64,000 nt of DNA from Candidatus Limnocylindrales bacterium. Lineage in GTDB: Bacteria; Chloroflexota; Limnocylindria; Limnocylindrales; CSP1-4. A program made the position numbers and the translations under genes. Of this stretch, positions 3,430 through 64,000 are shown in pieces. Each line of letters begins with the position of its first letter. Position 1 is the first letter of the stretch. The stretch lies in NCBI GenBank assembly GCA_049967415.1, contig JBMFSS010000007.1:6629-70628 (forward strand), read 5' to 3'. A model generated the notes under the pieces. That model did no database searches. It was given only the letters and a program-made list of their open reading frames with translations, and was not told the DNA's origin.

Positions 3430-4812
3430 GTGGCGATGGTCGCACTCTCCATCCGCCTGCGCGGCGCCTCGGCGCCCATGCTGTCGCTCCCGTGGGGGCG
3501 ACCGCTCGCCGACTGGTCGCACGAGGCAGTCACGCTCCGCGAGCGGCCGGTGGGAGCCAGCCGACACGTGGTCCGTTTCGTCGAGCTCGCGGGGACGCTG
3601 TACGCGCTCAAGGAGATGCCGGTCGGAGTGGCTCGCCGCGAATACGAAACGCTGCGCGAGTTGGAACGTCGCGAGTTCCCGGGCGTGCGGCCCCTCGGCC
3701 TGGTGGAACGGGGCGGTGACGAGCCGGCGGTCCTGGTAACCGAGTACCTCGCCGGCTCATTCCAGTTCCGCCGCCTCTTCCAGCGCCTGCCTGCAGGCGC
3801 GCGCAAGCACCGCGACCGGCTCCTGGACGCGATGGCGTGGCTGATGGTGGACCTGCATCGGAACGGCGTGTACTGGGGCGATTGCTCCCTGGCGAACACC
3901 CTGTTTCGGCGCGACGGCCAGGCGCTGCAGGCGTTCCTGGTCGACGCGGAGACGAGCGAGGTGCATCCCTCGCTCAGCGATGGGCAGCGGGCGCTGGACG
4001 TGGAGATCCTGGTGGAGAACGTGGCCGGCGACCTGGCCGACATCGGCGCCCAGATCGGCCGGCCCAGCGAGCTGATCGACGAGGACTTCGAGGCCGCCGA
4101 GCGGGTTGCCCAGCGCTATGCCGCGCTGTGGGAGGAGCTCCACCGCGAGGAAACCATCGGCCCGGGCGACCAGTACCGGGTCGAGGCACGCGTGCGCCGG
4201 CTCAACGAGCTCGGCTTTGCGGTGGACGAGCTCTCGTTCGATCCGGGTGCCGAGGAGAGCGGGTCGGGCGCCGGAGGCACGGAGGCGTGGCCCGCGACGA
4301 GCCCGGCCGGCGAGGGGGCGGCGGGCCGTCTGCGGCTGCGGGTGGTGGTGGCGGGACGCCGGTTCCACGCAAGCGAGCTGCGTCGCCTCACCGGGCTGGA
4401 GGTCGGCGAGGGGCAGGCCACGATCTTGCTCAACGACCTGCGCGCGTGCCGCGGCCGTCTGGAACGTCAGGTCGGGGGCTCGGTCTCCGAAGCAGAGGCC
4501 GCGGACCGCTGGCTGACGGAGATCGTTCGCCCCACCCTGGCGCGCCTGGCTACCCTGCGCCTCGCGACGCCCGATCCGGTGCAGGCGTACTGCGACCTGC
4601 TCGAAGTGCGCTGGCTGCTCTCCGAGGAGGCCGGGCACGACGTCGGGGACGAGGCGGCGATCGAGGCGATCCGGCAACGACGGATGCCCACCGAGTCGGC
4701 GGCCGGGATGGTGGTGGTGGAGGAACCCACTGCGATCTACGACGTGGTCGGGTGGCATCCCGCCCCGCCCGAGGCCGCGCCGGCGGCTGAGCGGACGGAC
4801 GACGCTGGCTGA
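3430..4812 (+). CDS. DUF4032 domain-containing protein (lipopolysaccharide-kinase-like N-terminal domain)
   Basis: 460-aa ORF with a TAGACT -10-like element immediately upstream. Conserved protein matching, from memory, the DUF4032 family; kinase-like N-terminal region (HRNGVYWGDCSLANTLFRRDG, LVDAETSEVH). Confidence 0.65.
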   Translation: MAMVALSIRLRGASAPMLSLPWGRPLADWSHEAVTLRERPVGASRHVVRFVELAGTLYALKEMPVGVARREYETLRELERREFPGVRPLGLVERGGDEPAVLVTEYLAGSFQFRRLFQRLPAGARKHRDRLLDAMAWLMVDLHRNGVYWGDCSLANTLFRRDGQALQAFLVDAETSEVHPSLSDGQRALDVEILVENVAGDLADIGAQIGRPSELIDEDFEAAERVAQRYAALWEELHREETIGPGDQYRVEARVRRLNELGFAVDELSFDPGAEESGSGAGGTEAWPATSPAGEGAAGRLRLRVVVAGRRFHASELRRLTGLEVGEGQATILLNDLRACRGRLERQVGGSVSEAEAADRWLTEIVRPTLARLATLRLATPDPVQAYCDLLEVRWLLSEEAGHDVGDEAAIEAIRQRRMPTESAAGMVVVEEPTAIYDVVGWHPAPPEAAPAAERTDDAG

Positions 4813-4908: not shown

Positions 4909-5769
4909 TCAGCGCCCGCCCGGCTTTCGGCCCAGCACGGAGTGAAACCCGCGTCGCACGACGAACGCCTGGCGGGGGAACGGCGCGAGCTCGGCGAGCA
5001 GGGCTTCACGGAGCGCCGTTCGTTCCGCGCCGTCCAGGGCGGCCCGACGAAGGTCGCGTTCAGCCCGCGAGAGCATGGCATCCACGAACCAGGCCGCGCC
5101 GACGTAATCCGCATCGAAGTGGTGGGCCCGCAGCTCGACCCCCTCGAACCCCGCGCGCTGCATCAGTCGGGCGATCCGATCGGGGCGCCCGTTCCGGCTC
5201 GAGAGCCGGCCGAAGGCTTCCTCGTGGCCGGCCCCTCCCTCGGCCACAGCCGGCACGAGCTGCAGCAGCCGCTCCTCGAACCGCCGGAGGACGGAGGGTG
5301 AGAAGGCTCCCCACACGGTAAAGCCGGCCAGACCTCCCGGGGCCAGCACGCGCAGGATGCCGCAGAGGGCTCGCATCGGGTGGGGGAAGTGGCTGAACCC
5401 GAAGCCGCACCCCACGCGCTCGAAGGCTCCCTCCGGGTAACCCAGTTGCTCCGCGTCCATCACGCGGAGGTCAATGGCCGGCATGCCCGCGGCCTCGCAC
5501 GCCGCCCTCGCCTCCCTGACCTGCAACGGCGCGAAGTCGCAGGCGGCCACCCTGGACGCGCCCACCCTGGCCGCAAAGGCCCGCGCGACGAGCCCCGTAC
5601 CGCAGGCGAGGTCGAGACACCGCTCGTCCCGCTCCGGTTCCAGGTCGGCGACCAGCTGCTCCGCGGGAATCCGGAAGTAGGGACCCATGTGCGGCTCCCA
5701 GCCGGCGGCTGCCGCGTCGTAGTCCTCGCGGATGTACGCCTTCAGCGCGCTGGGGGTGACCCGGGCCAT
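4909..5769 (-). CDS. class I SAM-dependent methyltransferase
   Basis: LDLACGTGLVARAF SAM-binding motif I, ACDFAP motif II, MDAEQLGYPEGAFERV motif III. Confidence 0.8.
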   Translation of the reverse strand: MARVTPSALKAYIREDYDAAAAGWEPHMGPYFRIPAEQLVADLEPERDERCLDLACGTGLVARAFAARVGASRVAACDFAPLQVREARAACEAAGMPAIDLRVMDAEQLGYPEGAFERVGCGFGFSHFPHPMRALCGILRVLAPGGLAGFTVWGAFSPSVLRRFEERLLQLVPAVAEGGAGHEEAFGRLSSRNGRPDRIARLMQRAGFEGVELRAHHFDADYVGAAWFVDAMLSRAERDLRRAALDGAERTALREALLAELAPFPRQAFVVRRGFHSVLGRKPGGR

Positions 5770-6959: not shown

Positions 6960-8639
6960 ATGGACGAGGGCTGGCGCGCCGCCCGGGAGCGCTGGGAGCG
7001 CGAGCGACTCGATCCCGAGATCCGGCGCGTCCCCGAGCGCGGGCCGCGGTTCCGCACCCTCGGCGAGATCCCGGTGCGCGGCCTGTACACGCCGCTGGAC
7101 CTGGAGGGGCGTGACCCGCTGGAGACCGTGGGGTTCCCCGGGTGGCCACCGTTCACCCGAGGTATCCACGCCAGCGGCTACCGCGGTCGGCTCTGGACGA
7201 TGCGCATGTTCGCCGGCTTTGGCTCGGCGGAAGACACCAACGCCCGCTTCCATGAGCTGCTGGCCGCCGGGCAGACCGGGCTCTCGATCGCCTATGACAT
7301 GCCCACGCTGTACGGCTACGACACCGACGATCCGCAGGCGGAAGGCGAGTTCGGCACCTGCGGCGTGGCGGTCAGCTCGCTGGCGGACATGGAGATTCTG
7401 CTGGAGGGGATCCCGCTCGACCGGATCTCCACCTCCATGACCATCAACGCGCCGGCCGCGCCGATCTGGGCCATGTACATCGCGGCGGCCGAGAAGCGTG
7501 GCTATCCGCGGGGCAGCCTCGAAGGTACGCTCCAGAACGACATCCTGAAGGAGTACATCGCCCAGAAGGAGTTCCTCTTCCCCATCGAGCCCTCCCTGCG
7601 ACTGGTCACCGACACGATCGAGTTCGGCACCCGGGAGCTGCCCCGCTGGAACACCGTTTCGATCAGCGGCTACCACATCCGGGAGGCGGGGGCCACGGCG
7701 GTCCAGGAGCTCGCCTTCACCATCGCCGACGGGATCACGTACGTCGAGCGGGCGCTCGAGCGGGGCTTGCAGGTGGACGAGTTCGCGCCCCGCCTCTCGT
7801 TCTTCTTCAACGCCCATTCCGACTTCTTCGAAGAGATTGCCAAGTACCGTGCCGCTCGCCGCATCTGGTATCGGCTGGTGACCGAACGCTGGCACGCCGC
7901 CCACGAACGATCCGCCTGGCTGCGCTTCCACGCCCAGACGGCAGGCGCCTCGCTCACCGCCCAGCAGCCACTCAACAACCTGACCCGGGTCGCGGTCCAG
8001 GCGCTGTCGGCGGTCCTCGGGGGCGCGCAGTCACTGCACACCGATGCGTACGACGAGGCCTGGGCCGTGCCGTCGGCGGAGGCCGCGCTGCTGGCGCTCC
8101 GCCAGCAGCAGGTGCTGGCGGCGGAGACGGGCGCGACCAGCACCGTGGACCCGCTGGGGGGCTCCTGGTACGTCGAGTGGCTGACCGACGAGGTGGAACG
8201 CCAGGCCTTGCGCTACCTCGGCGAGATCGATGCCTTGGGCGGGATGCCATCGGCCATCGATGCGGGCTTCCCCCAGCGTGAGATCGCGGATGCCGCATAT
8301 CGGTACCAGCGGGCCCTCGACGCGGGGGAGCGGGAGGTGGTCGGTGTCAACGCGCATGCCGACCCGGACGAGCAACTGGCGATCCCACTGCTGGAGGTGA
8401 GCGAGGAGAGCCGGCGGCGCCATCTCGCGCGCCTCGAACGGGTCCGCCGGACCCGCGATCCCGTCGCGGTGGCGGCCGCGCTGGATCACCTGCGCGACAT
8501 GGCCGCCCGTCCCGGCTCGAGCGCGACCAACGTGATGCCGGCCCTGCTCGAGTGCGCCACCGCCTACGCGACCCTGGGCGAGATGTGCGGCGTGCTGCGC
8601 ACATGCTTTGGCGAGTATCGCGAGGGCGTCGCGGTCTGA
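6960..8639 (+). CDS. B12-dependent acyl-CoA mutase large (catalytic TIM-barrel) subunit, lacking a fused B12-binding domain; specificity residues look isobutyryl-CoA-mutase-like
   Basis: [18 protein letters not shown]...[30 protein letters not shown]...SIAYDMPT...[17 protein letters not shown]...[13 protein letters not shown]...: methylmalonyl-CoA mutase family substrate-binding domain. The ATG at 6960 was chosen over the 222-aa N-terminal extension in the ORF track, which is low-complexity and overlaps the reading context of the upstream gene. No C-terminal DxHxxG B12 domain. Confidence 0.9.
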
Positions 8640-55991: not shown

Positions 55992-56261
55992 GTGTCAATG
56001 GGAACGGTGACGCCCGCCCTTGCTGGTCCACGCCACGCACGGATCGAAGAGGTCTCCACGGATCACCTCATCCGGCGCATCCGGTGGAACCGTGCCGTCA
56101 AGCGCGCCCGCACGCCGGGATCGCCACTTTGGCAGGCGGCCGACGCGCGAGAGCGGCGGCTGGTGGCCGCGTTGCAGGGTCGCTTTGGCGTGACCACGAT
56201 CACGCCAGACGGACTCGACTGGCTCCTCCTGGGTGAGCGTCGGGGGGACCGAATCGCCTGA
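55992..56261 (+). CDS. hypothetical small protein
   Basis: 89-aa ORF, GTG start, composition not obviously junk (…HLIRRIRWNRAVKRARTPGSPLWQAAD…ITPDGLDWLLLGERR). No family recognised. Confidence 0.3.
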   Translation: MSMGTVTPALAGPRHARIEEVSTDHLIRRIRWNRAVKRARTPGSPLWQAADARERRLVAALQGRFGVTTITPDGLDWLLLGERRGDRIA

Positions 56262-56303: not shown

Positions 56304-56699
56304 TCAGTCCAGGCGCTCGAGCCGGTCGACCAGCTCGCCCCGGGCACAGGCCAGTGCCGCGGCGTCCACGGTCTCGATCTCGGTGACCAGGGGCCGCAGC
56401 CCGAGACTGGCGAAGCGATCGTATGCGCCCTGCCCCATGCCACCGGCGATCAGCACCGAACAGTCCGCAATCGCCTGGGCCATGGCGTCATGGCGGGGTT
56501 GTGCGGCCGGGTCCGTGCCGTGACGTCCGGATGCGCTCTGCTCCTCGCGCGGCCCTTCAGTCATGTGCGGCGCAAACTTTGGCCGCAGCTCGCGGTTGAC
56601 GATCACGTTGTCCTCGACCGTCAGGACCGCGTAATACGGAGCCCGGCCGAAATGCTGGCTGACCGTGCGGCCGTCCTGGGTGGCGATAGCGATCTTCAT
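56304..56699 (-). CDS. NifX/NifB-family (dinitrogenase FeMo-cofactor-binding domain) protein
   Basis: MKIAIATQDGRTVSQHFGRAPYYAVLTVEDN...CSVLIAGGMGQGAYDRFASLGLRP: typical Nitro_FeMo-Co fold (MTH1175-like). AGGAGC ribosome-binding site upstream. Confidence 0.8.
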   Translation of the reverse strand: MKIAIATQDGRTVSQHFGRAPYYAVLTVEDNVIVNRELRPKFAPHMTEGPREEQSASGRHGTDPAAQPRHDAMAQAIADCSVLIAGGMGQGAYDRFASLGLRPLVTEIETVDAAALACARGELVDRLERLD

Positions 56700-57039
56700 G
56701 GACGCCTGTGCTCCTGGAACTGCGGCTGGGGAAATCCAAAACCCATCTATCGCAATCTATCGCACGCGCAGCAATGGTCGCGCAGGGCCAAGCGTCCCGT
56801 TTCCGGGGGGCCGCCGGCCGCTTGTCAGGACGGCGCGCGGATTCCATCGCAGACACCGTGGATGAGGTAGCCTGTCACCGAAACGATAGGCGCGATGAAG
56901 CTCGCGCGGCATCCCGCCCGGCGGGTGATGGCTTCTGGTCGGTGGGCCGGAAGCCATTGCTGTTTTTCCGGGCCTTCCATGGCCCCCTGCGGGTGGACCT
57001 GAAACCAGCGGTGCCGGGCGCGTTCGAGGCGACAGGAAG

Positions 57040-58473
57040 ATGGGTCGACAGGGAATCGGACCAACCGCGATCCCGGCGGACGCATGGCCGTCGGGCGCGC
57101 CGCAGGCGACGGGGAGCGCGCCGGCGCTGCGCAGGCCCAAGACGCAGGTGCCCGCGGGGGTGCCGCAACGGTCCGATGTGGCGTGCGAGGTCTGCAGGTT
57201 CCAGGCCGACTCGGTCGAGCGGCGCATCGGCTGGGTGGAGGCCGAAGGGGTCAACGACGGCCCCTTCCTGCGCCGGTTCGTGGCCGCCGGCGGGTACTGC
57301 CCGCGGCACATGCGCCGGGTCCTGGCCGGGGTGGAGCGCCAGCGCTGGACCATTCCGATCCGCCTGGCGCTCCACGAGGTGGGCCGGCAGGTGGCGGGAA
57401 CGGGCGCCGGCCTGCAGCTCGAGCCGTGTTCGCTCTGCGAGCTGGAGCGCTGGACGGGCGCGTACGGGGTCTCGATCCTCGTCTCGGGTCATCCGCCGGT
57501 CCTTGGAGGTGCGCGCTGGCTTGGCCCCGAGGCGTTCGTCTGCCTCCGGCACGCCGCCGAGGTCGTCCAGGCGGGAGCAGGGGTGGATGCGCTGCAGCGC
57601 CTGGAGCGTGCCATGGAGGTCGCGTCGCAGGCGGATCTGCGGGGCGCGCTGTGTGCCCTGGCCGGGTCCGATCCCGCGGCCCGGGTGCGGTCGCCGTCAG
57701 GGCAGGTGTCCCCCGAGGGTCCGGGCCGGGCGACCGGGAGTCGGCCGCCCGCCATCCCGTGCCCTGGGTCCGGCGAGGTGTCCCCGGACTGGCTGCGGGG
57801 GGAGATCGAGGCGGGCCGCTGCCCGGCCTGCTCGGCGGCGGCATGCGCCGAGCACGCCCTCTTCGAGCGTGACGAGCCACGTGCGAACGCCGTGTTGTGC
57901 CCGGCCCACGCCTGGGACGCGGTGGATGCCGCCCCGGATCTCCTGCGGGCCGGGCTGGAGGGCACGCTTTCGGATGCCCGCGGCTGGCTGTCGGCGCAGG
58001 CAGTTGCCGCCGGCTCCGGGCATGCCCGGGGCGCTTCCGGCTGGCCCGGCGACCGAGGCACGTCCCGGGGCACCGGCATTCTCCAACGGCTTGCCGGCCG
58101 TCGGGCTGCCCCCCGGCCAGGTGGGTCCTGTTCCGTCTGCGTGGCCCAGGAGGCGGCCGTGGGCGCGGTCCTGCGCCTGCTCGCGGCTCGCCCGGAGACA
58201 TCCGTCCTGCCGCCGGGCTGGCCGGGTCTCTGCGCCCGGCACCTGGCGCGAGCCGGACGCGAGGTGCCGGGCGCTCGCAGCTGGCTGGCGGCGCTGGCGC
58301 GGTCCGCCAGCGCCCGCCTTGAGCAGAGCCTGGAGCCGGGACCCATGCCGGGCGACGAGGGGGAGCGGATCCTGTGGGAGGCGGCCGCCTACCTCGCCGG
58401 GGATGGGATTGGACGCGATCCCTGGCGCGCTCCTGATCCGGGCGTGGCCGGCAACACGATCTGGCTGCTCTGA
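57040..58473 (+). CDS. cysteine-rich repeat protein A of unknown family (four CxxC...C-x-x-H modules)
   Basis: AGGAAG ribosome-binding site then ATG. Modules: CEVCRF...(32 residues)...CPRH; CSLCEL...(33 residues)...CLRH; CPACSAAAC...(21 residues)...CPAH; CSVCVA...(28 residues)...CARH. Each is followed by a hydrophobic L/F-x-R-x-x-A segment. No signal peptide or TM helix. Confidence 0.6.
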   Translation: MGRQGIGPTAIPADAWPSGAPQATGSAPALRRPKTQVPAGVPQRSDVACEVCRFQADSVERRIGWVEAEGVNDGPFLRRFVAAGGYCPRHMRRVLAGVERQRWTIPIRLALHEVGRQVAGTGAGLQLEPCSLCELERWTGAYGVSILVSGHPPVLGGARWLGPEAFVCLRHAAEVVQAGAGVDALQRLERAMEVASQADLRGALCALAGSDPAARVRSPSGQVSPEGPGRATGSRPPAIPCPGSGEVSPDWLRGEIEAGRCPACSAAACAEHALFERDEPRANAVLCPAHAWDAVDAAPDLLRAGLEGTLSDARGWLSAQAVAAGSGHARGASGWPGDRGTSRGTGILQRLAGRRAAPRPGGSCSVCVAQEAAVGAVLRLLAARPETSVLPPGWPGLCARHLARAGREVPGARSWLAALARSASARLEQSLEPGPMPGDEGERILWEAAAYLAGDGIGRDPWRAPDPGVAGNTIWLL

Positions 58474-59204
58474 TGGAGCGCGCCATGGCACTGCCATCGG
58501 TCCCCGTGCCGGCGGCCCTCCGGAGGGAAGCGCGCCACCCACTCGGGGGTCTGGAAATCCAGTACTTCTGCTGGTTCGGGGCCGGGGAGATTGACAAGCC
58601 CGAAACCCGGGTGCAGCTCGCAGAGGCCTGGGGCATGTGCCACCGGCACGCTCTCGGGTTCCTGGCGGTGGAGGCGGCGGTGAACCGCGGCTGGCTCTTT
58701 CGGCCGGCGGTGGTCTACGACGATGTGCTCGATCGGGCGCGGAGCGCACTGGGGCGGCACCGGATCTTCGGCCGGCAGCGGATGATCGCGGACCTGCGGG
58801 CGGCGGAGCCCTGTGCACCGTGCGCTCTCGGTCTCTCGCCCGCGGATCCGGCCGCCCCAGCTGCAGCGGCCATCGTGGACGAAGGCGGGAACCTGGAGCC
58901 GTTGCGGGCGTTCGCTGCCGCCACGCGCGACCACTGGGGGCGATGGATCTGCGGGCGCTGCGCTGGCACCGCATCGCCGGCTCGCTGTCGACTGCATCTG
59001 GCGGACGACCTGGCTGCCGGCCGCCTGGTGGACCTCCGCGGGCAGCGCCAGCTGGTCGAGACGGTCTCGTCGCACCTCGCCACCTACGCCCGCTCCTTCG
59101 GCTGGTTGGGACGCGGGACCGATGTGCCGGCCGACCGCGCGGCGCTGATCGGCGCTGTCGGCTGGTGCGGGGGGTGGGAAAGCATCCTGCGGTATCTCGG
59201 CTGA
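58473..59204 (+). CDS. cysteine-rich repeat protein B of unknown family (paralogous half-size version of A)
   Basis: TGATG start-stop overlap with A. Modules C...CHRH and CAPC...(39 residues)...CGRC...(9 residues)...CRLH. Same spacing logic as A. Confidence 0.6.
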   Translation: MERAMALPSVPVPAALRREARHPLGGLEIQYFCWFGAGEIDKPETRVQLAEAWGMCHRHALGFLAVEAAVNRGWLFRPAVVYDDVLDRARSALGRHRIFGRQRMIADLRAAEPCAPCALGLSPADPAAPAAAAIVDEGGNLEPLRAFAAATRDHWGRWICGRCAGTASPARCRLHLADDLAAGRLVDLRGQRQLVETVSSHLATYARSFGWLGRGTDVPADRAALIGAVGWCGGWESILRYLG

Positions 59205-59211
59205 GACCGCG

Positions 59212-60627
59212 TCAGCCGGTCCCGCTCAGCCCCACCGCTGCTCCCACGCGGCGCGTCTGGCTCGAGAGCGCCTCGTCCGGCCGGGCGCCGGTCGAAGCCC
59301 GGTCGGCCCAGGCATGCCGCAGGACCCGAAGGACCGCCGTGGCGTTGGCCGAGACGGTTGCCGGGTAAGTGAACGTGACCGATCGCGCGGCCGCCGCGGC
59401 GGCCGGCTGGCTCAGCTCAACCCGGCCGATCAGGGGCGAGAGCGTGATCGAGATCGCCCGCAGGAAGCCCAGATCGAGGGTGCGGCATTCGCCGGCCACC
59501 AGGATGGCGAACCGCGTCGCAGTCAGGCCGACCGCGGCCGCCTGGGGTGTTCCATCTCTCCGCGGTGCGTAGAACGCCGCCAGCAGCGGCTCCGGGTCCA
59601 GATGCTCGCGCAGCGCAGCGACCGCCTGCAGGGCGTCGTCCTGCTGGTGGAAGAGGGCCGCAGGAGCGGGGTCGAAGTCGAGCGCCCGGGGAGCATAGCG
59701 GCGCACCATGGCCCGGCTCCCCTCCGCGGGAAGGAACCGCGCGAGCAGGTCGCGCATCACCTCCGCCTCGGGTCGAAGCTCCTCCGGCAGCGGGAAGGTG
59801 GCGCCACCTCCCCGGGTCTGGACCTGCAGCTCCACCACGTCGCCTCCCGACAGGCGGACGGCCTGCAGTGCCTCAACGGCCACCAGCCGCGCGTCGACAC
59901 CCCAATCCATCAGGTAGCGGTCGGGGGCCATGTGGTCCACCATCCAGATCAGCTGCCGGTCGGAGAGAACCAGCAGGCCGGCGCGCCGCTCCGCTCCCCG
60001 TCGTGACAGCCCCAGCAACCCGCCGCGGATCGCGTCCGGCGGCCGTTCGATGGCGTACAGCAGCCGCTCGTCGTCATCCAGGAGCCCCTCCAGCCCACGG
60101 ATGAAGCGAGGAGGCAGCCGATCCAGGCGATACTCGGGACGGGAATGCGGGGTGGTGAACCGCGCCTGGCCGGGATCGGCTGCCGCCGAGCGCCAGGCGC
60201 GGCCGCCCAGCAGCCTCCCGGCCTGGCGGCGCACCCGGAATCGCTGGCGCGCTTCCAGCGCCAGCCGGTCGGCGCCAGCCGCATCGACCCATCGCGCTTC
60301 CGGGGCGCGTGCCACCGTCCGGATCACCGACTCGGGTGGAAGGGGCTGGCCGGGCAGGTTCGCGACCAGCACGGTTCGATCGGGCGCCATGAGGGCCCCC
60401 GCCAGTTCGGCCGTCACGCGACAGCCCGCGAAACTGGATGCGGGAAGCGCGATCACTGCCGGCAGCGCGCTGCCGTCGCCCGCGTCCGAGTCGGCAAGGT
60501 GGGCGCGGTCGAGCCCCAGCCAGAGCCCGCCTTCGCGGCCGGCCGTGGCGCGCGCCAGGCCGTCCTCGACGCTCACCTCGAGGCCGGGTCCGAGGGCTTC
60601 ATCGACCACCAGGTCCACGCGGTTCAT
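59212..60627 (-). CDS. hypothetical protein (472 aa)
   Basis: Start at the ATG for MNRVDLVVDEALGPGLE, ATGA-coupled to the upstream HEAT protein gene. No recognisable motifs. Confidence 0.5.
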   Translation of the reverse strand: MNRVDLVVDEALGPGLEVSVEDGLARATAGREGGLWLGLDRAHLADSDAGDGSALPAVIALPASSFAGCRVTAELAGALMAPDRTVLVANLPGQPLPPESVIRTVARAPEARWVDAAGADRLALEARQRFRVRRQAGRLLGGRAWRSAAADPGQARFTTPHSRPEYRLDRLPPRFIRGLEGLLDDDERLLYAIERPPDAIRGGLLGLSRRGAERRAGLLVLSDRQLIWMVDHMAPDRYLMDWGVDARLVAVEALQAVRLSGGDVVELQVQTRGGGATFPLPEELRPEAEVMRDLLARFLPAEGSRAMVRRYAPRALDFDPAPAALFHQQDDALQAVAALREHLDPEPLLAAFYAPRRDGTPQAAAVGLTATRFAILVAGECRTLDLGFLRAISITLSPLIGRVELSQPAAAAAARSVTFTYPATVSANATAVLRVLRHAWADRASTGARPDEALSSQTRRVGAAVGLSGTG

Positions 60628-61088
60628 CTTCGTTCCGCCGCGACACGGGGCAAGCCTCCGGGACCGGCCGCCGCGCGCCGGACGATCACCGAAGGATGGG
60701 CTCGTGCGGCTGCCAGGTAGCCGTCCGCGACCGGATCGCCGATAAAGGCACGCAGGGCCCGTGCCGCCGCCGCCGCCCGATACGGGTCGCCCTGCCTTGC
60801 CAGCAGCCTGCCCAGCGGCTCGATGGCCCGCACCTCCTGCCGCCGGGCCAGCAGCATTGCAGCGAGGATGGCGGTGGCCGTGTCGGGGTGATCGAGCGCC
60901 CACAGCAGGCCGGCCTCAAAGTCGCGTGGCGCGTCCAGGGTGGCCCCGCACCGGGCGCAGGTTGTGCGCTCCCAGGCGTTCAGGGCGTAACAGGAAGGAC
61001 AGACCCGGGTCGGTCGTTCCCCGCGACCGGTCAAAGCCGGCCGGGGAACACCCGGAGGCCCGAGGAGATCCGAAGGCGAACCGGGCAT
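60624..61088 (-). CDS. zinc-ribbon plus HEAT-repeat (PBS-lyase-like) protein
   Basis: CPSCYALNAWERTTCARCG zinc ribbon followed by two or three HEAT-like repeats (ILAAMLLARRQEVRAIEPLGRLL..., DPYRAAAAARALRAFIGDP...). Confidence 0.5.
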   Translation of the reverse strand: MPGSPSDLLGPPGVPRPALTGRGERPTRVCPSCYALNAWERTTCARCGATLDAPRDFEAGLLWALDHPDTATAILAAMLLARRQEVRAIEPLGRLLARQGDPYRAAAAARALRAFIGDPVADGYLAAARAHPSVIVRRAAAGPGGLPRVAAERR

Positions 61089-61366
61089 CTTCCACCTCTC
61101 GAACAGTTCGAACAAGGTAGAAGCCGTCAGCGGATCCGCAGGTCGTCGCGCTCGCGACGGGCGGGCCTCATCACCCGGACTCATTTTAGCGCGATGGCCC
61201 GGGCCGCCCCGGCGGAGCCAGGGCCTGGGCGGGCAACCCGGGCCGTCTGGCCGATGACAGATCGCACGGGACGCGTACCCTTGAGGCCAATGTGCCGCCG
61301 CGTCGCCGCAAGGGCCCTGGGCCCCGGACTGGCGCGCGACCTCCGGCTGGCTGTGGAGGTTCTTGA

Positions 61367-62671
<1,305 letters not shown>

Positions 62672-62765
62672 TTCGCGGGTAACGGCCACGTCGGCGAGCG
62701 TGGCGAGCGTCGTCGGGTCGAGCCGTCTGCCCGGTTGGCCTGGCCGACAATCTGCGCCGTCTGCT

Positions 62766-62800
62766 GACAGCCTCTGCACCGTTCGGGTGCGGAGGCTGTC
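62766..62800 (+). terminator. stem-loop (15-bp stem, one G-U) about 95 nt downstream of eno
   Basis: GACAGCCTCTGCACC-gttcg-GGTGCGGAGGCTGTC followed by a T-containing tract (atggtttc). Confidence 0.45.
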
Positions 62801-62950
62801 ATGGTTTCGGAGGGTGGCAAGCGAGCGATATGCGCGCCGAGGGGCGGAGCGGCGCGCAGCGCCCCGCGGGAAGGGGCGCGGCGCGCTGTGGCCCGCGCAT
62901 CATGGCCCCGTCGACTAACAGGGCAGGAGGGACGCGTGGCTGGCAACGGG

Positions 62951-63433
62951 ATGGAGATCGAGCGCAAGTGGCTGCTGGCCGCGGCGCCAACGGCGGCGGA
63001 GCTGCAGCGGCTCGGTGACCGGCCGATCAGGATCGAGCAGGTCTATCTGCGGCCCCTGCCGGCCGCGCCCGTGCGTCGCGTGCGCCGGAGCGAGCAGGCG
63101 GGGCGGATCGACCACACATACACGGAGAAGGCACCGCTCGGGGGGATCGTGCGCTCGGAACGCGAGCACCCGATCGATGCGGCCGAGTACGCGCGGCTGC
63201 TCGGCGAAGCGGACCCGGCGCTGCACCCCATCCGCAAGACCCGCCACGTCTTCCCCTACGCGGGCAACACCCTGGAGCTGGACGTCTTCGATGAGCCCGC
63301 CGGGCTCGTGATCCTGGAGATCGAGTTCGACCGAGCCGACGCACCGGAACCAGCGCTGCCACCTGCGCTGCGGGTGGTCCGCGAGGTGAGCGAAGTCCCG
63401 GCGTACTTCAACGTCAACCTGGCTCGGGGGTAA
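62951..63433 (+). CDS. CYTH-domain protein (class IV adenylyl cyclase / triphosphatase-like)
   Basis: MEIERKWLL (ExExK motif), later ...ELDVFDEPAGLVILEIEFD acidic motifs. Confidence 0.75.
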   Translation: MEIERKWLLAAAPTAAELQRLGDRPIRIEQVYLRPLPAAPVRRVRRSEQAGRIDHTYTEKAPLGGIVRSEREHPIDAAEYARLLGEADPALHPIRKTRHVFPYAGNTLELDVFDEPAGLVILEIEFDRADAPEPALPPALRVVREVSEVPAYFNVNLARG

Positions 63434-64000
63434 TGGCCCGGCCGAAGATCCGGCGGTAGACGTCCTCGCCGTAGCTGGTCGTCAGCGGCTCACCCGGGAC
63501 CACCCGGAAGGTGCGCTCCCCGTCGGACCGACGTTCGGCGCGCAGGAAGAGGGCGCGCTCCGGGAGCAGCCGCTGGAAGCTGTCGGCCAGATCGAACATG
63601 TGTGTTACGTACAGGACCTTGACGCCGCTGTCGAGCAGCGCACGCACGACCTGGCGGGCGATCTCGGACCCCTCGCGCTCGCTGGTCGAGGCAAACGACT
63701 CGTTGAAGAACACCACGCCCTGTGGCGTGAGGCTGTCCACGATGGCGCTCATCCGCCGCAGCTCTTCGTCCAGCTTGCCGCTCCGCATGCTGGCGTCCTC
63801 TTCGCGCTTGAAGTGCGTGAAGATGCCGCTGCAGGCGTTGGCCCGAAAGGCCTCGGCGCCCACGAACATCCCATCCTGCAGCCCCGCTGGCTGGCGTAGC
63901 CGCGCGGCGCCCGCGCCGGATGCGCATCCTTGGCGGCCGCGGGCTGGGCCGGCGGACCGGGCTGCGCCACCCTGCCGCGCAGGGTGGCTACACTCGCCCT
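63414..64000 (-). CDS. MutS-family ATPase domain protein (C-terminal part; 5' end runs off the window)
   Basis: ...KLDEELRRMSAIVDSLTPQGVVFFNESFASTSEREGSEIARQVVRALLDSGVKVLYVTHMFDL resembles MutS domain V (ABC signature, Walker B and the D-loop/ThHyxEL segment). The frame stays open upstream of the first ATG to the window end. Confidence 0.45.
   Translation of the reverse strand, partial: GECSHPARQGGAARSAGPARGRQGCASGAGAARLRQPAGLQDGMFVGAEAFRANACSGIFTHFKREEDASMRSGKLDEELRRMSAIVDSLTPQGVVFFNESFASTSEREGSEIARQVVRALLDSGVKVLYVTHMFDLADSFQRLLPERALFLRAERRSDGERTFRVVPGEPLTTSYGEDVYRRIFGRAITPEPG

Follow-up and report, generated by a model that had tools for sequence, protein, structure and literature searches.

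We analysed a 64,000-nucleotide stretch (the window) of contig JBMFSS010000007.1 from Candidatus Limnocylindrales bacterium (GCA_049967415.1), in which two adjacent genes, here called A and B, encode cysteine-rich proteins. By profile comparison both proteins belong to the DUF6062 superfamily (Pfam PF19538), and the A-B operon is preceded by a leader resembling the fluoride riboswitch (crcB motif, Rfam RF01734), as is a second, convergent operon that encodes a zinc-ribbon-HEAT protein and a protein of 471 amino acids (p471). We consider it likely that A and B are zinc-stabilised helical DUF6062 proteins, that the A-B and HEAT-p471 operons are induced by fluoride and that the family is part of the fluoride stress response. 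DUF6062 is a large family of about 1,300 clusters without a described function or solved structure, and our literature search found no paper on DUF6062 or PF19538. The two genes are as follows.

57040 to 58473, plus strand: gene A, 477 amino acids (aa), two tandem DUF6062-like domains with four CxxC...CxxH tetrads.
58473 to 59204, plus strand: gene B, 243 aa, a single divergent DUF6062-like domain.

The original prediction, made from the sequence without database searches, had called two adjacent open reading frames (ORFs) here with a TGATG overlap, and both were found. The TGA of A (58471-58473) and the ATG of B (58473-58475) have one base in common, and this stop/start overlap recurs in related loci, where it spans 1 nt (L001) or 4 nt (L002); loci used for comparison are cited by such numbers. 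The guanine-plus-cytosine (GC) content at codon positions 1, 2 and 3 is 0.79, 0.64 and 0.86 in A and 0.75, 0.58 and 0.84 in B; serS and eno nearby have the same pattern, with position 2 lowest, so both frames look coding. Gene A is annotated as a hypothetical protein in an NCBI metagenome-assembled genome of Candidatus Limnocylindrales. The exact sequence of B is missing from a collection of 15 billion proteins in which A of the same genome is present, and B may be unannotated, or called with a different start, in the source record.

As predicted, A contains exactly four CxxC...CxxH units, at C49/C52/C87/H90, C130/C133/C168/H171, C261/C264/C287/H290 and C364/C367/C398/H401. All 16 ligand positions are invariant among seven A-type sequences with identity down to 30%, and none of 20,000 shuffles of A contained two or more units. 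For B, two or three such units had been claimed, and at the described spacing there are none. The residues that are invariant in the 12 B-family sequences are C56xxH59, C114xxC117, C160xxC163, C172xxH175 and C232, while C33 is not conserved; the eight ligands in Cys/His pairs are enough for two tetrads in an arrangement other than that of A. Together A and B have 24 conserved Cys/His ligands. Conservation in homologues had been proposed as a check on the idea of a Cys3His metal site, and the invariance in the A and B sets is consistent with such a site, as are the ligand columns of the family, which show essentially no variation in 219 domain matches. The proteins also look cytoplasmic, as had been suggested, and the 19-residue hydropathy maxima (1.55 for A and 1.25 for B) do not reach the usual transmembrane level of 1.6.

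The same prediction had recognised no protein family, and Pfam and NCBIfam searches with A and B likewise found none. The family became visible through a bridge protein, P0015, encoded by a 248-aa gene in the convergent operon of a syntenic relative (L002/L003), which scores 37.2 bits with PF19538, above the gathering score of 27 bits. The first unit of A matches the first unit of P0015 with a BLASTP E value of 8e-8, and the whole N-terminal half of A is colinear with P0015, with all eight ligands in register. An alignment of this half with P0015 was used as a profile over 1.84 billion representative proteins and returned 1,320 clusters (50% identity) at E <= 0.001. The matches fall into two length classes, one of about 210-270 aa with two units and one of about 440-510 aa with four units like A. 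All 50 single-domain matches that were tested against Pfam are PF19538, and four-unit relatives of about 470 aa carry the NCBI name "DUF6062 family protein". When the A and B families were compared by hhalign with these 50 verified members, they matched at 99.2% (E 1.9e-19) and 98.9% (E 3.4e-17, 189 columns), respectively, so that the Cys3His unit taken to belong to no family is the hallmark of DUF6062. The C-terminal half of A gave 97.1% with the family, and a local family hidden Markov model scored 84.5 bits on A (60.5 for the N-terminal and 24.4 for the C-terminal domain).

Of the 219 domains matched by the family profile, 160 carry the full CCCH-CCCH pattern, the remainder being partial alignments or changes of His to Asp. 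This substitution, at the last His in 9 of the 219, is the only recurrent one at a ligand position. The N-terminal domain of A aligns with the family as CCCH-CCCH; the C-terminal domain holds all eight residues, of which the profile aligns six. B is without the canonical first CxxC in 12 of 12 family members, keeps C56/H59, C114/C117 and C172/H175 at family columns and adds the invariant C160/C163. At the level of these alignments A is a tandem double DUF6062 domain with four Cys3His tetrads, a divergent member of the superfamily, and B is a single DUF6062-superfamily domain in which the first CxxC is lost and C160xxC163 is a gain. Like other DUF6062 proteins, they are built on a domain of about 240 aa, helical in the model of B, whose hallmark is two CxxC...CxxH tetrads (about 35 residues between the pairs) at invariant columns, and the N-terminal domain of A keeps the (E)xVND...R motif. 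They differ from the family in the third unit of A, which has a short spacer of 23 residues and no ENVND segment, and in B, where besides the missing first CxxC and the extra invariant CxxC there is C232 and the C-terminal IRKxDYR motif is replaced.

Since A and B are each homologous to DUF6062, they are distant paralogues of each other. The paralogous pair of the original prediction therefore holds through the family, although the direct A-B profile comparison was not significant (hhalign E 0.047). Unit-versus-unit profile comparisons were not significant either, and in these comparisons the repeat relationship is visible through the family profile only. The expectation of an undescribed system is partly borne out, in that DUF6062 is functionally uncharacterised, but the family itself is already in Pfam. 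A search for homologues of P0015 found that protein alone, and a metagenome scan with the A-family alignment returned three short contigs. One metagenome protein of 389 aa (P0020), annotated as an adenylate cyclase in its sources, is a fusion of CYTH and DUF6062 domains.

The AlphaFold2 model of B is all-helical (predicted local distance difference test score, pLDDT, 87.5; predicted template modelling score 0.84), and all four ligand pairs lie at helix starts: 56/59 at H57, 114/117 at H115, 160/163 at H161 and 172/175 at H173. Such a position is typical of structural sites. The fold of the B model matched nothing in the PDB, and the DUF6062 profile gave nothing significant against PDB sequences, the best being prefoldin and bS18 (E about 0.1). 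On the mycobacterial ribosomal protein bS18 the profile aligned over the CxxC...CxxH stretch at E 0.14, which is not significant. From the two-plus-two arrangement of the ligand pairs and their strict conservation we infer that the metal is zinc. Each tetrad would probably hold one structural Zn2+ between two helix N-termini, and C160xxC163 probably stands in for the missing pair, so that B would keep two sites. The two proteins probably assemble into a hetero-complex, as suggested by the conserved stop/start overlap, the tandem DUF6062 pairs in other Chloroflexota and the fused double-domain forms. Like other helical proteins with Cys/His zinc sites, the zinc-binding anti-sigma (ZAS) domains are also small and helical, with Cys/His pairs that clamp a metal at helix ends, and they share the general plan of a protein-binding module stabilised by zinc, but their order is reversed (HxxxCxxC against CxxC...CxxH here). 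Neither A nor B gave a Pfam zf-HC2 match, and a sigma factor gene is absent from all neighbourhoods examined.

The regulation of the two operons is predicted from two riboswitch-like elements and a terminator, a third element lies before the CYTH gene, and in their sequences the operons of A-B and HEAT-p471 show the P1 and pseudoknot architecture of the fluoride riboswitch with a competing platform.

56882 to 56944, plus strand: RS-1, fluoride-riboswitch-like aptamer in the A-B operon leader (sub-threshold RF01734 match and custom covariance model).
56924 to 56969, plus strand: intrinsic terminator from a terminator scan, a 17-bp stem (56924-56961) followed by GUUUUUCC.
61111 to 61184, minus strand: RS-2, fluoride-riboswitch-like aptamer directly upstream of the HEAT gene (RF01734 24.5 bits).
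62712 to 62780, plus strand: RS-3, third riboswitch-like element, between the enolase stop codon and the ATG (62801) of the CYTH ORF (custom model).

The spacer in front of A measures 340 nt, and a stretch of about 115 nt in it is almost unchanged between lineages that share only 51-66% identity in their A proteins. L001 and L002 have this stretch ahead of A as well, and L026 has it ahead of a B-like gene. RS-1 lies in this leader and consists of P1 (GCGCG/CGCGC) with the loop AUGAAGCU, a short second hairpin and a pseudoknot strand from UGAUGGCUUC. In a covariance model built without any A-type leader in its training set, RS-1 scored 24.2 bits (E 1e-5 over 302 kb). The pseudoknot of the A-type leader is preserved through compensatory change. 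Overlapping the aptamer is the terminator, for which the minimum-free-energy fold is -51.5 kcal/mol (z -4.1) and whose 3' arm changes over four lineages in ways that keep pairing (U-A to U-G). Its 5' arm includes the pseudoknot strand GGCUUC of RS-1, and because GGCUUC is common to both structures, the folded aptamer and the terminator are predicted to be mutually exclusive, as in an ON switch.

RS-2 shares the hallmarks of RS-1: its P1 loop carries GAUG, and UGAU/UGAC precedes the strand that forms the pseudoknot. A hairpin of 13-16 nt is inserted after P1. Elements at the RS-2 position in relatives score 23-29.9 bits with RF01734. The 3' tail of RS-2, CUUCUACCU, should be able to pair with the ribosome-binding site AGGUGGAAG that adjoins the AUG, and this helix was seen in the predicted fold. 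RS-3 scored 29.0 bits with the custom model (E 2.5e-7) and was not picked up by the strict hallmark scan. Its 3' half is intact, as is a hairpin that masks the ribosome-binding site, the 5' half has lost GAUG, and intact counterparts exist in L001, L002, L026 and L029; from these features RS-3 may be a decayed switch.

Compared with the fluoride riboswitch, the window elements have in common P1 closing an 8-nt AUGxxxxx loop, a 6-bp pseudoknot of the loop with the tail after UGAU/UGAC, and competition for the pseudoknot strand, either from a terminator or from a helix that masks the ribosome-binding site. They differ in scoring below the gathering threshold, in the hairpin insert of RS-2 and in the G/C-rich linker of RS-1. 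Terminator and ribosome-binding-site platforms are the standard ON-switch designs of the crcB motif (PMC2864571).

The association of such elements with DUF6062 is not confined to the window. Matches to RF01734 at or above its gathering score of 34 bits lie directly upstream of DUF6062 operons at five loci.

L010, Handelsmanbacteria: 49.9 bits, riboswitch followed by HIT and a B-like gene.
L012, Thermoflexus: 35.8 bits, riboswitch followed by DUF6062, HEAT and MFS genes.
L013, Anaerolineae: 47.9 bits, riboswitch followed by two MutS_V genes and DUF6062.
L015, Anaerolineae: 46.6 bits, riboswitch followed by two MutS_V genes and DUF6062.
L016, Anaerolineae: 49.9 bits, riboswitch followed by a short MutS_V-like remnant ORF and DUF6062.

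Full-length, correctly placed matches below the threshold were found in L018, L019, L023 and the relatives of the window. The custom model gave 20.6-27.6 bits on A-type leaders, 25.4 bits (L005) and 53.3 bits (L028) upstream of stand-alone B-like genes and 35.1 bits upstream of the DUF6062-like gene TRD_RS12225 on the megaplasmid of Thermomicrobium roseum DSM 5159, the last being a match to this model only; in the remaining 55 kb of the window it found nothing at or above 15 bits. Over 16 aligned elements, which include RS-1 and RS-2, the positions of P1 and the pseudoknot are 98.3% paired, as against 42-50% in shifted controls, and 8 of the 11 pairs show compensatory (double) changes. The pseudoknot itself is 100% paired, with five of its six pairs changed on both sides. 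A scan for the hallmark pattern gave 37 matches in 362 kb, compared with about 0.5 in shuffles. In L026 five riboswitch-like elements lie within 8 kb of one contig, at 10-73, 985-1038, 3928-3993 (minus strand), 5480-5548 and 7580-7657 (minus strand). The genes that follow them are HIT, a B-like gene, HEAT-p471 and two small ones (130 and 175 aa), and pyrophosphatase and dynamin-like genes adjoin.

The genes around A and B, and a locus in a cultured organism with the same arrangement, are as follows.

55992 to 56261, plus strand: 89-aa ORF, no family match.
56304 to 56699, minus strand: NifX/NifB-type gene (PF02579, 57 bits), divergent from A.
59212 to 60627, minus strand: p471 gene, 471 aa, no known domain, coupled to the upstream HEAT gene by a 4-nt overlap.
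60624 to 61088, minus strand: zinc-ribbon and HEAT_2 protein gene, 154 aa, start MPGSPSDLL (Pfam HEAT_2).
61367 to 62671, plus strand: enolase gene, a conserved neighbour of DUF6062 genes.
62801 to 63433, plus strand: CYTH-domain gene (triphosphate tunnel family; Pfam CYTH 21.8 bits, cut-off 23.2).
63414 to 64000, minus strand: gene of an ATPase with MutS domain V only, cut by the end of the window; homologues in L001, L013, L015 and L019.
NC_011961.1, 661188 to 666235: L030, on the megaplasmid of the cultured Thermomicrobium roseum DSM 5159.

The conserved core of the Limnocylindria-type loci is a B-type gene facing the convergent zinc-ribbon-HEAT_2 and p471 operon, followed by enolase. Gene A is confined to a sub-lineage (the window and L001-L004) and is absent from L026-L029, and p471 adjoins B-type genes in both groups (L001-L004 and L026-L029). 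Sequence searches with p471 against Pfam, NCBIfam, PADLOC and the PDB were without match. A reading of the p471 N-terminus as a degenerate pyrophosphatase was tried and rejected: phmmer with an approximate E. coli pyrophosphatase query matched only the true pyrophosphatase in L026. Homologues of the zinc-ribbon-HEAT protein adjoin DUF6062 genes in L012, L018 and L019. Enolase stands in one gene string with DUF6062 genes, with overlapping ends, in L017 and L019; no riboswitch was detected directly upstream of the window enolase.

Eleven GTDB Chloroflexota loci were gathered by protein pattern alone. DUF6062 genes occur as tandem pairs in L014, L017, L019 and L020, and pairs of ATPases of about 500 aa with MutS domain V only stand beside them in L013, L015 and L019. 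These ATPases weakly resemble the NCBIfam KamC reactivase ATPase (about 63-68 bits, cut-off 300). An MFS transporter gene lies beside DUF6062 genes in L012 and L020, and also in L005. The string in L030 consists of a riboswitch-like element, TRD_RS12225 (three units), a HEAT-annotated gene, MoxR, DUF58 and DUF4129, and the MoxR-DUF58-DUF4129 trio is also found near B-like genes in L005 and L008. A HIT gene precedes the B-like gene in L010 and lies near one in L026. The CYTH+DUF6062 fusion and the HIT neighbours hint at a link to nucleotide or polyphosphate chemistry.

Among the genes left of A, the NifX-like gene is present in the window and L001 and absent from L002, L026 and L028; as it is not conserved, we rejected it and regard it as probably not part of the system. 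The 89-aa ORF keeps its position in L001-L004 and is not preceded by a riboswitch. The peroxiredoxin gene nearby belongs to a housekeeping gene string, and the PADLOC defence models yielded no credible match.

Among the targets of fluoride, enolase is a classic one. The neighbours that the DUF6062 loci have in common with the fluoride-riboswitch regulon are enolase, MutS-like ATPase, pyrophosphatase and MFS genes, whereas the cluster showed no gene for a fluoride exporter. The crcB motif was described upstream of mutS genes, with overlapping terminators that imply an ON switch (PMC2864571), and enolase and pyrophosphatase are frequent in fluoride-riboswitch operons (PMC11139923). The conserved neighbours of DUF6062 are these published fluoride-regulon genes (MutS-like, enolase, pyrophosphatase), and DUF6062 proteins probably belong to the fluoride stress response. 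Rising cytoplasmic fluoride would turn on all four genes, A, B, the zinc-ribbon-HEAT gene and p471. RS-1 folded with fluoride would block the terminator and allow transcription of A-B, and the tail of RS-2 would govern access to the ribosome-binding site of HEAT-p471. In that case DUF6062, enolase and the MutS-like ATPases would all serve the fluoride response.

Work through protein-protein contacts is suggested by the occurrence of the domain in tandem and fused forms, by its HEAT partner and by the recurrent ATPase modules (MutS-like pairs or MoxR-DUF58-DUF4129). It is conceivable, if unlikely, that A and B are non-catalytic adaptors which, with the HEAT protein and the ATPases (MutS-like or MoxR-type), protect Mg-dependent enzymes such as enolase from fluoride poisoning or reactivate them after it. 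Quite unlikely is the bolder proposal that DUF6062, the zinc-ribbon-HEAT protein, p471 and the ATPase module (the MutS-like pair or MoxR-DUF58-DUF4129) make up a fluoride damage-repair machine, for example an ATP-driven reactivase that would strip dead-end Mg-fluoride-phosphate complexes from enolase or pyrophosphatase.

Several observations weigh against the fluoride interpretation as a whole or against parts of it. Neither aptamer upstream of the two operons reaches the RF01734 gathering score of 34: the match of RS-1 is full-length with 15.8 bits (E 0.016-0.057) and that of RS-2 has 24.5 bits (E 0.002). The linker of the A leader is atypical in being G/C-rich, and the E values of the custom model are rough, as they come from a shortened calibration. 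DUF6062 genes in L017, L021 and L022 are without a detectable upstream element, and many of the loci, mostly from Chloroflexota, are interrelated, so that shared ancestry inflates the counts. A fluoride exporter was not found in the window or the loci by one phmmer run with an approximate E. coli CrcB query, which is a weak test. On the protein side, the PF19538 model matched neither A nor its halves nor B at a cut-off as loose as E 10, the AlphaFold2 prediction for A from a three-sequence input is unusable (pLDDT 35), and the metal is read from motifs. The adaptor or reactivation role is a guess from the gene neighbourhood.

Four other explanations were weighed against the fluoride response. 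It is distinctly unlikely that the DUF6062 proteins are nucleic-acid- or ribosome-binding partners of the MutS-like ATPases, handling fluoride-induced DNA damage or stalled translation, not enzymes. Such partners would suit the string of riboswitch, two MutS_V genes and DUF6062 in L013 and L015 and the mildly basic isoelectric points of A (8.4) and B (8.7), and the crcB motif was first tied to mutS and DNA repair (PMC2864571). The DUF6062 family, however, has a median isoelectric point of 7.4 with a range of 4.8-11.2, and its operons in L010, L012, L018 and L030 are without a MutS-like gene.

The original prediction had favoured a multi-metal module for metal storage or delivery, cofactor assembly or redox sensing, and as an explanation unrelated to fluoride we hold this to be very unlikely. 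No metal transporter, metal regulator or cofactor-assembly gene stands among the conserved neighbours; what is conserved there is instead the riboswitch elements, enolase, the MutS-like ATPases and the HEAT protein, so the proposal found no support in the neighbourhood. It draws on the 24 conserved ligands, on the NifX-like gene divergently upstream of A and on the peroxiredoxin gene nearby, but the former gene is missing from three of the relatives, the latter sits in its housekeeping string, and the helix-start position of the ligand pairs in the B model is that of structural sites. The two views could nevertheless overlap, as disturbed metal homeostasis and oxidative stress are both reported effects of fluoride stress (PMC11139923).

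Another explanation that we judge highly improbable is that the A-B leader is a decayed relic or a mere terminator, with fluoride-independent expression of A and B and a neighbourhood that reflects inherited gene order. The leader core is kept across four lineages while the A proteins diverge, which suggests that the RNA is under stronger constraint than the coding sequence; its pseudoknot is preserved by compensatory change, and the link between DUF6062 and the riboswitch recurs in another phylum (Handelsmanbacteria, L010) and in Thermomicrobia (L030). These points stand against the low Rfam score of the A leader, the decayed look of RS-3 in the same window and the fact that the loci with A-type leaders belong to related lineages. 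Least probable of all is that the Cys3His tetrads bind iron-sulfur clusters and that A and B are electron or cluster carriers: Cys3His ligation of clusters is known in other proteins, there is the NifX-like neighbour, and the Asp that replaces the last His in some family members is also a known cluster ligand, but the two-plus-two layout (a CPxC-type knuckle, about 35 residues and CxxH at a helix start) is typical of single-metal sites and fits no standard iron-sulfur motif, and neither an iron-sulfur family match in Pfam or NCBIfam nor conserved iron-sulfur assembly genes nearby were found.

DUF6062, the zinc-ribbon-HEAT protein and p471 are absent from the fluoride literature that we searched; the riboswitch gene lists of 2012 lay outside this search, and the family may stand there unnamed. 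The likely fluoride response of A and B gives DUF6062, through its link to riboswitches in Chloroflexota and Handelsmanbacteria and to a riboswitch-like element in Thermomicrobia, a first testable lead to a function. Thermomicrobium roseum DSM 5159 is a cultured organism and carries the same arrangement, so that the link can be tested directly. The variants seen here, with a hairpin insert or a G/C-rich linker, could widen the Rfam model of the riboswitch. Apart from exporters and additional copies of the enzymes that fluoride inhibits, the riboswitch controls MutS-like and other genes, whose roles have been unclear since 2010-2012; these are here clustered with DUF6062 and HEAT genes in a conserved arrangement, which suggests that they act jointly. 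A fluoride damage-repair machine, if it exists, would give the cell a second defence that is separate from the export of fluoride.

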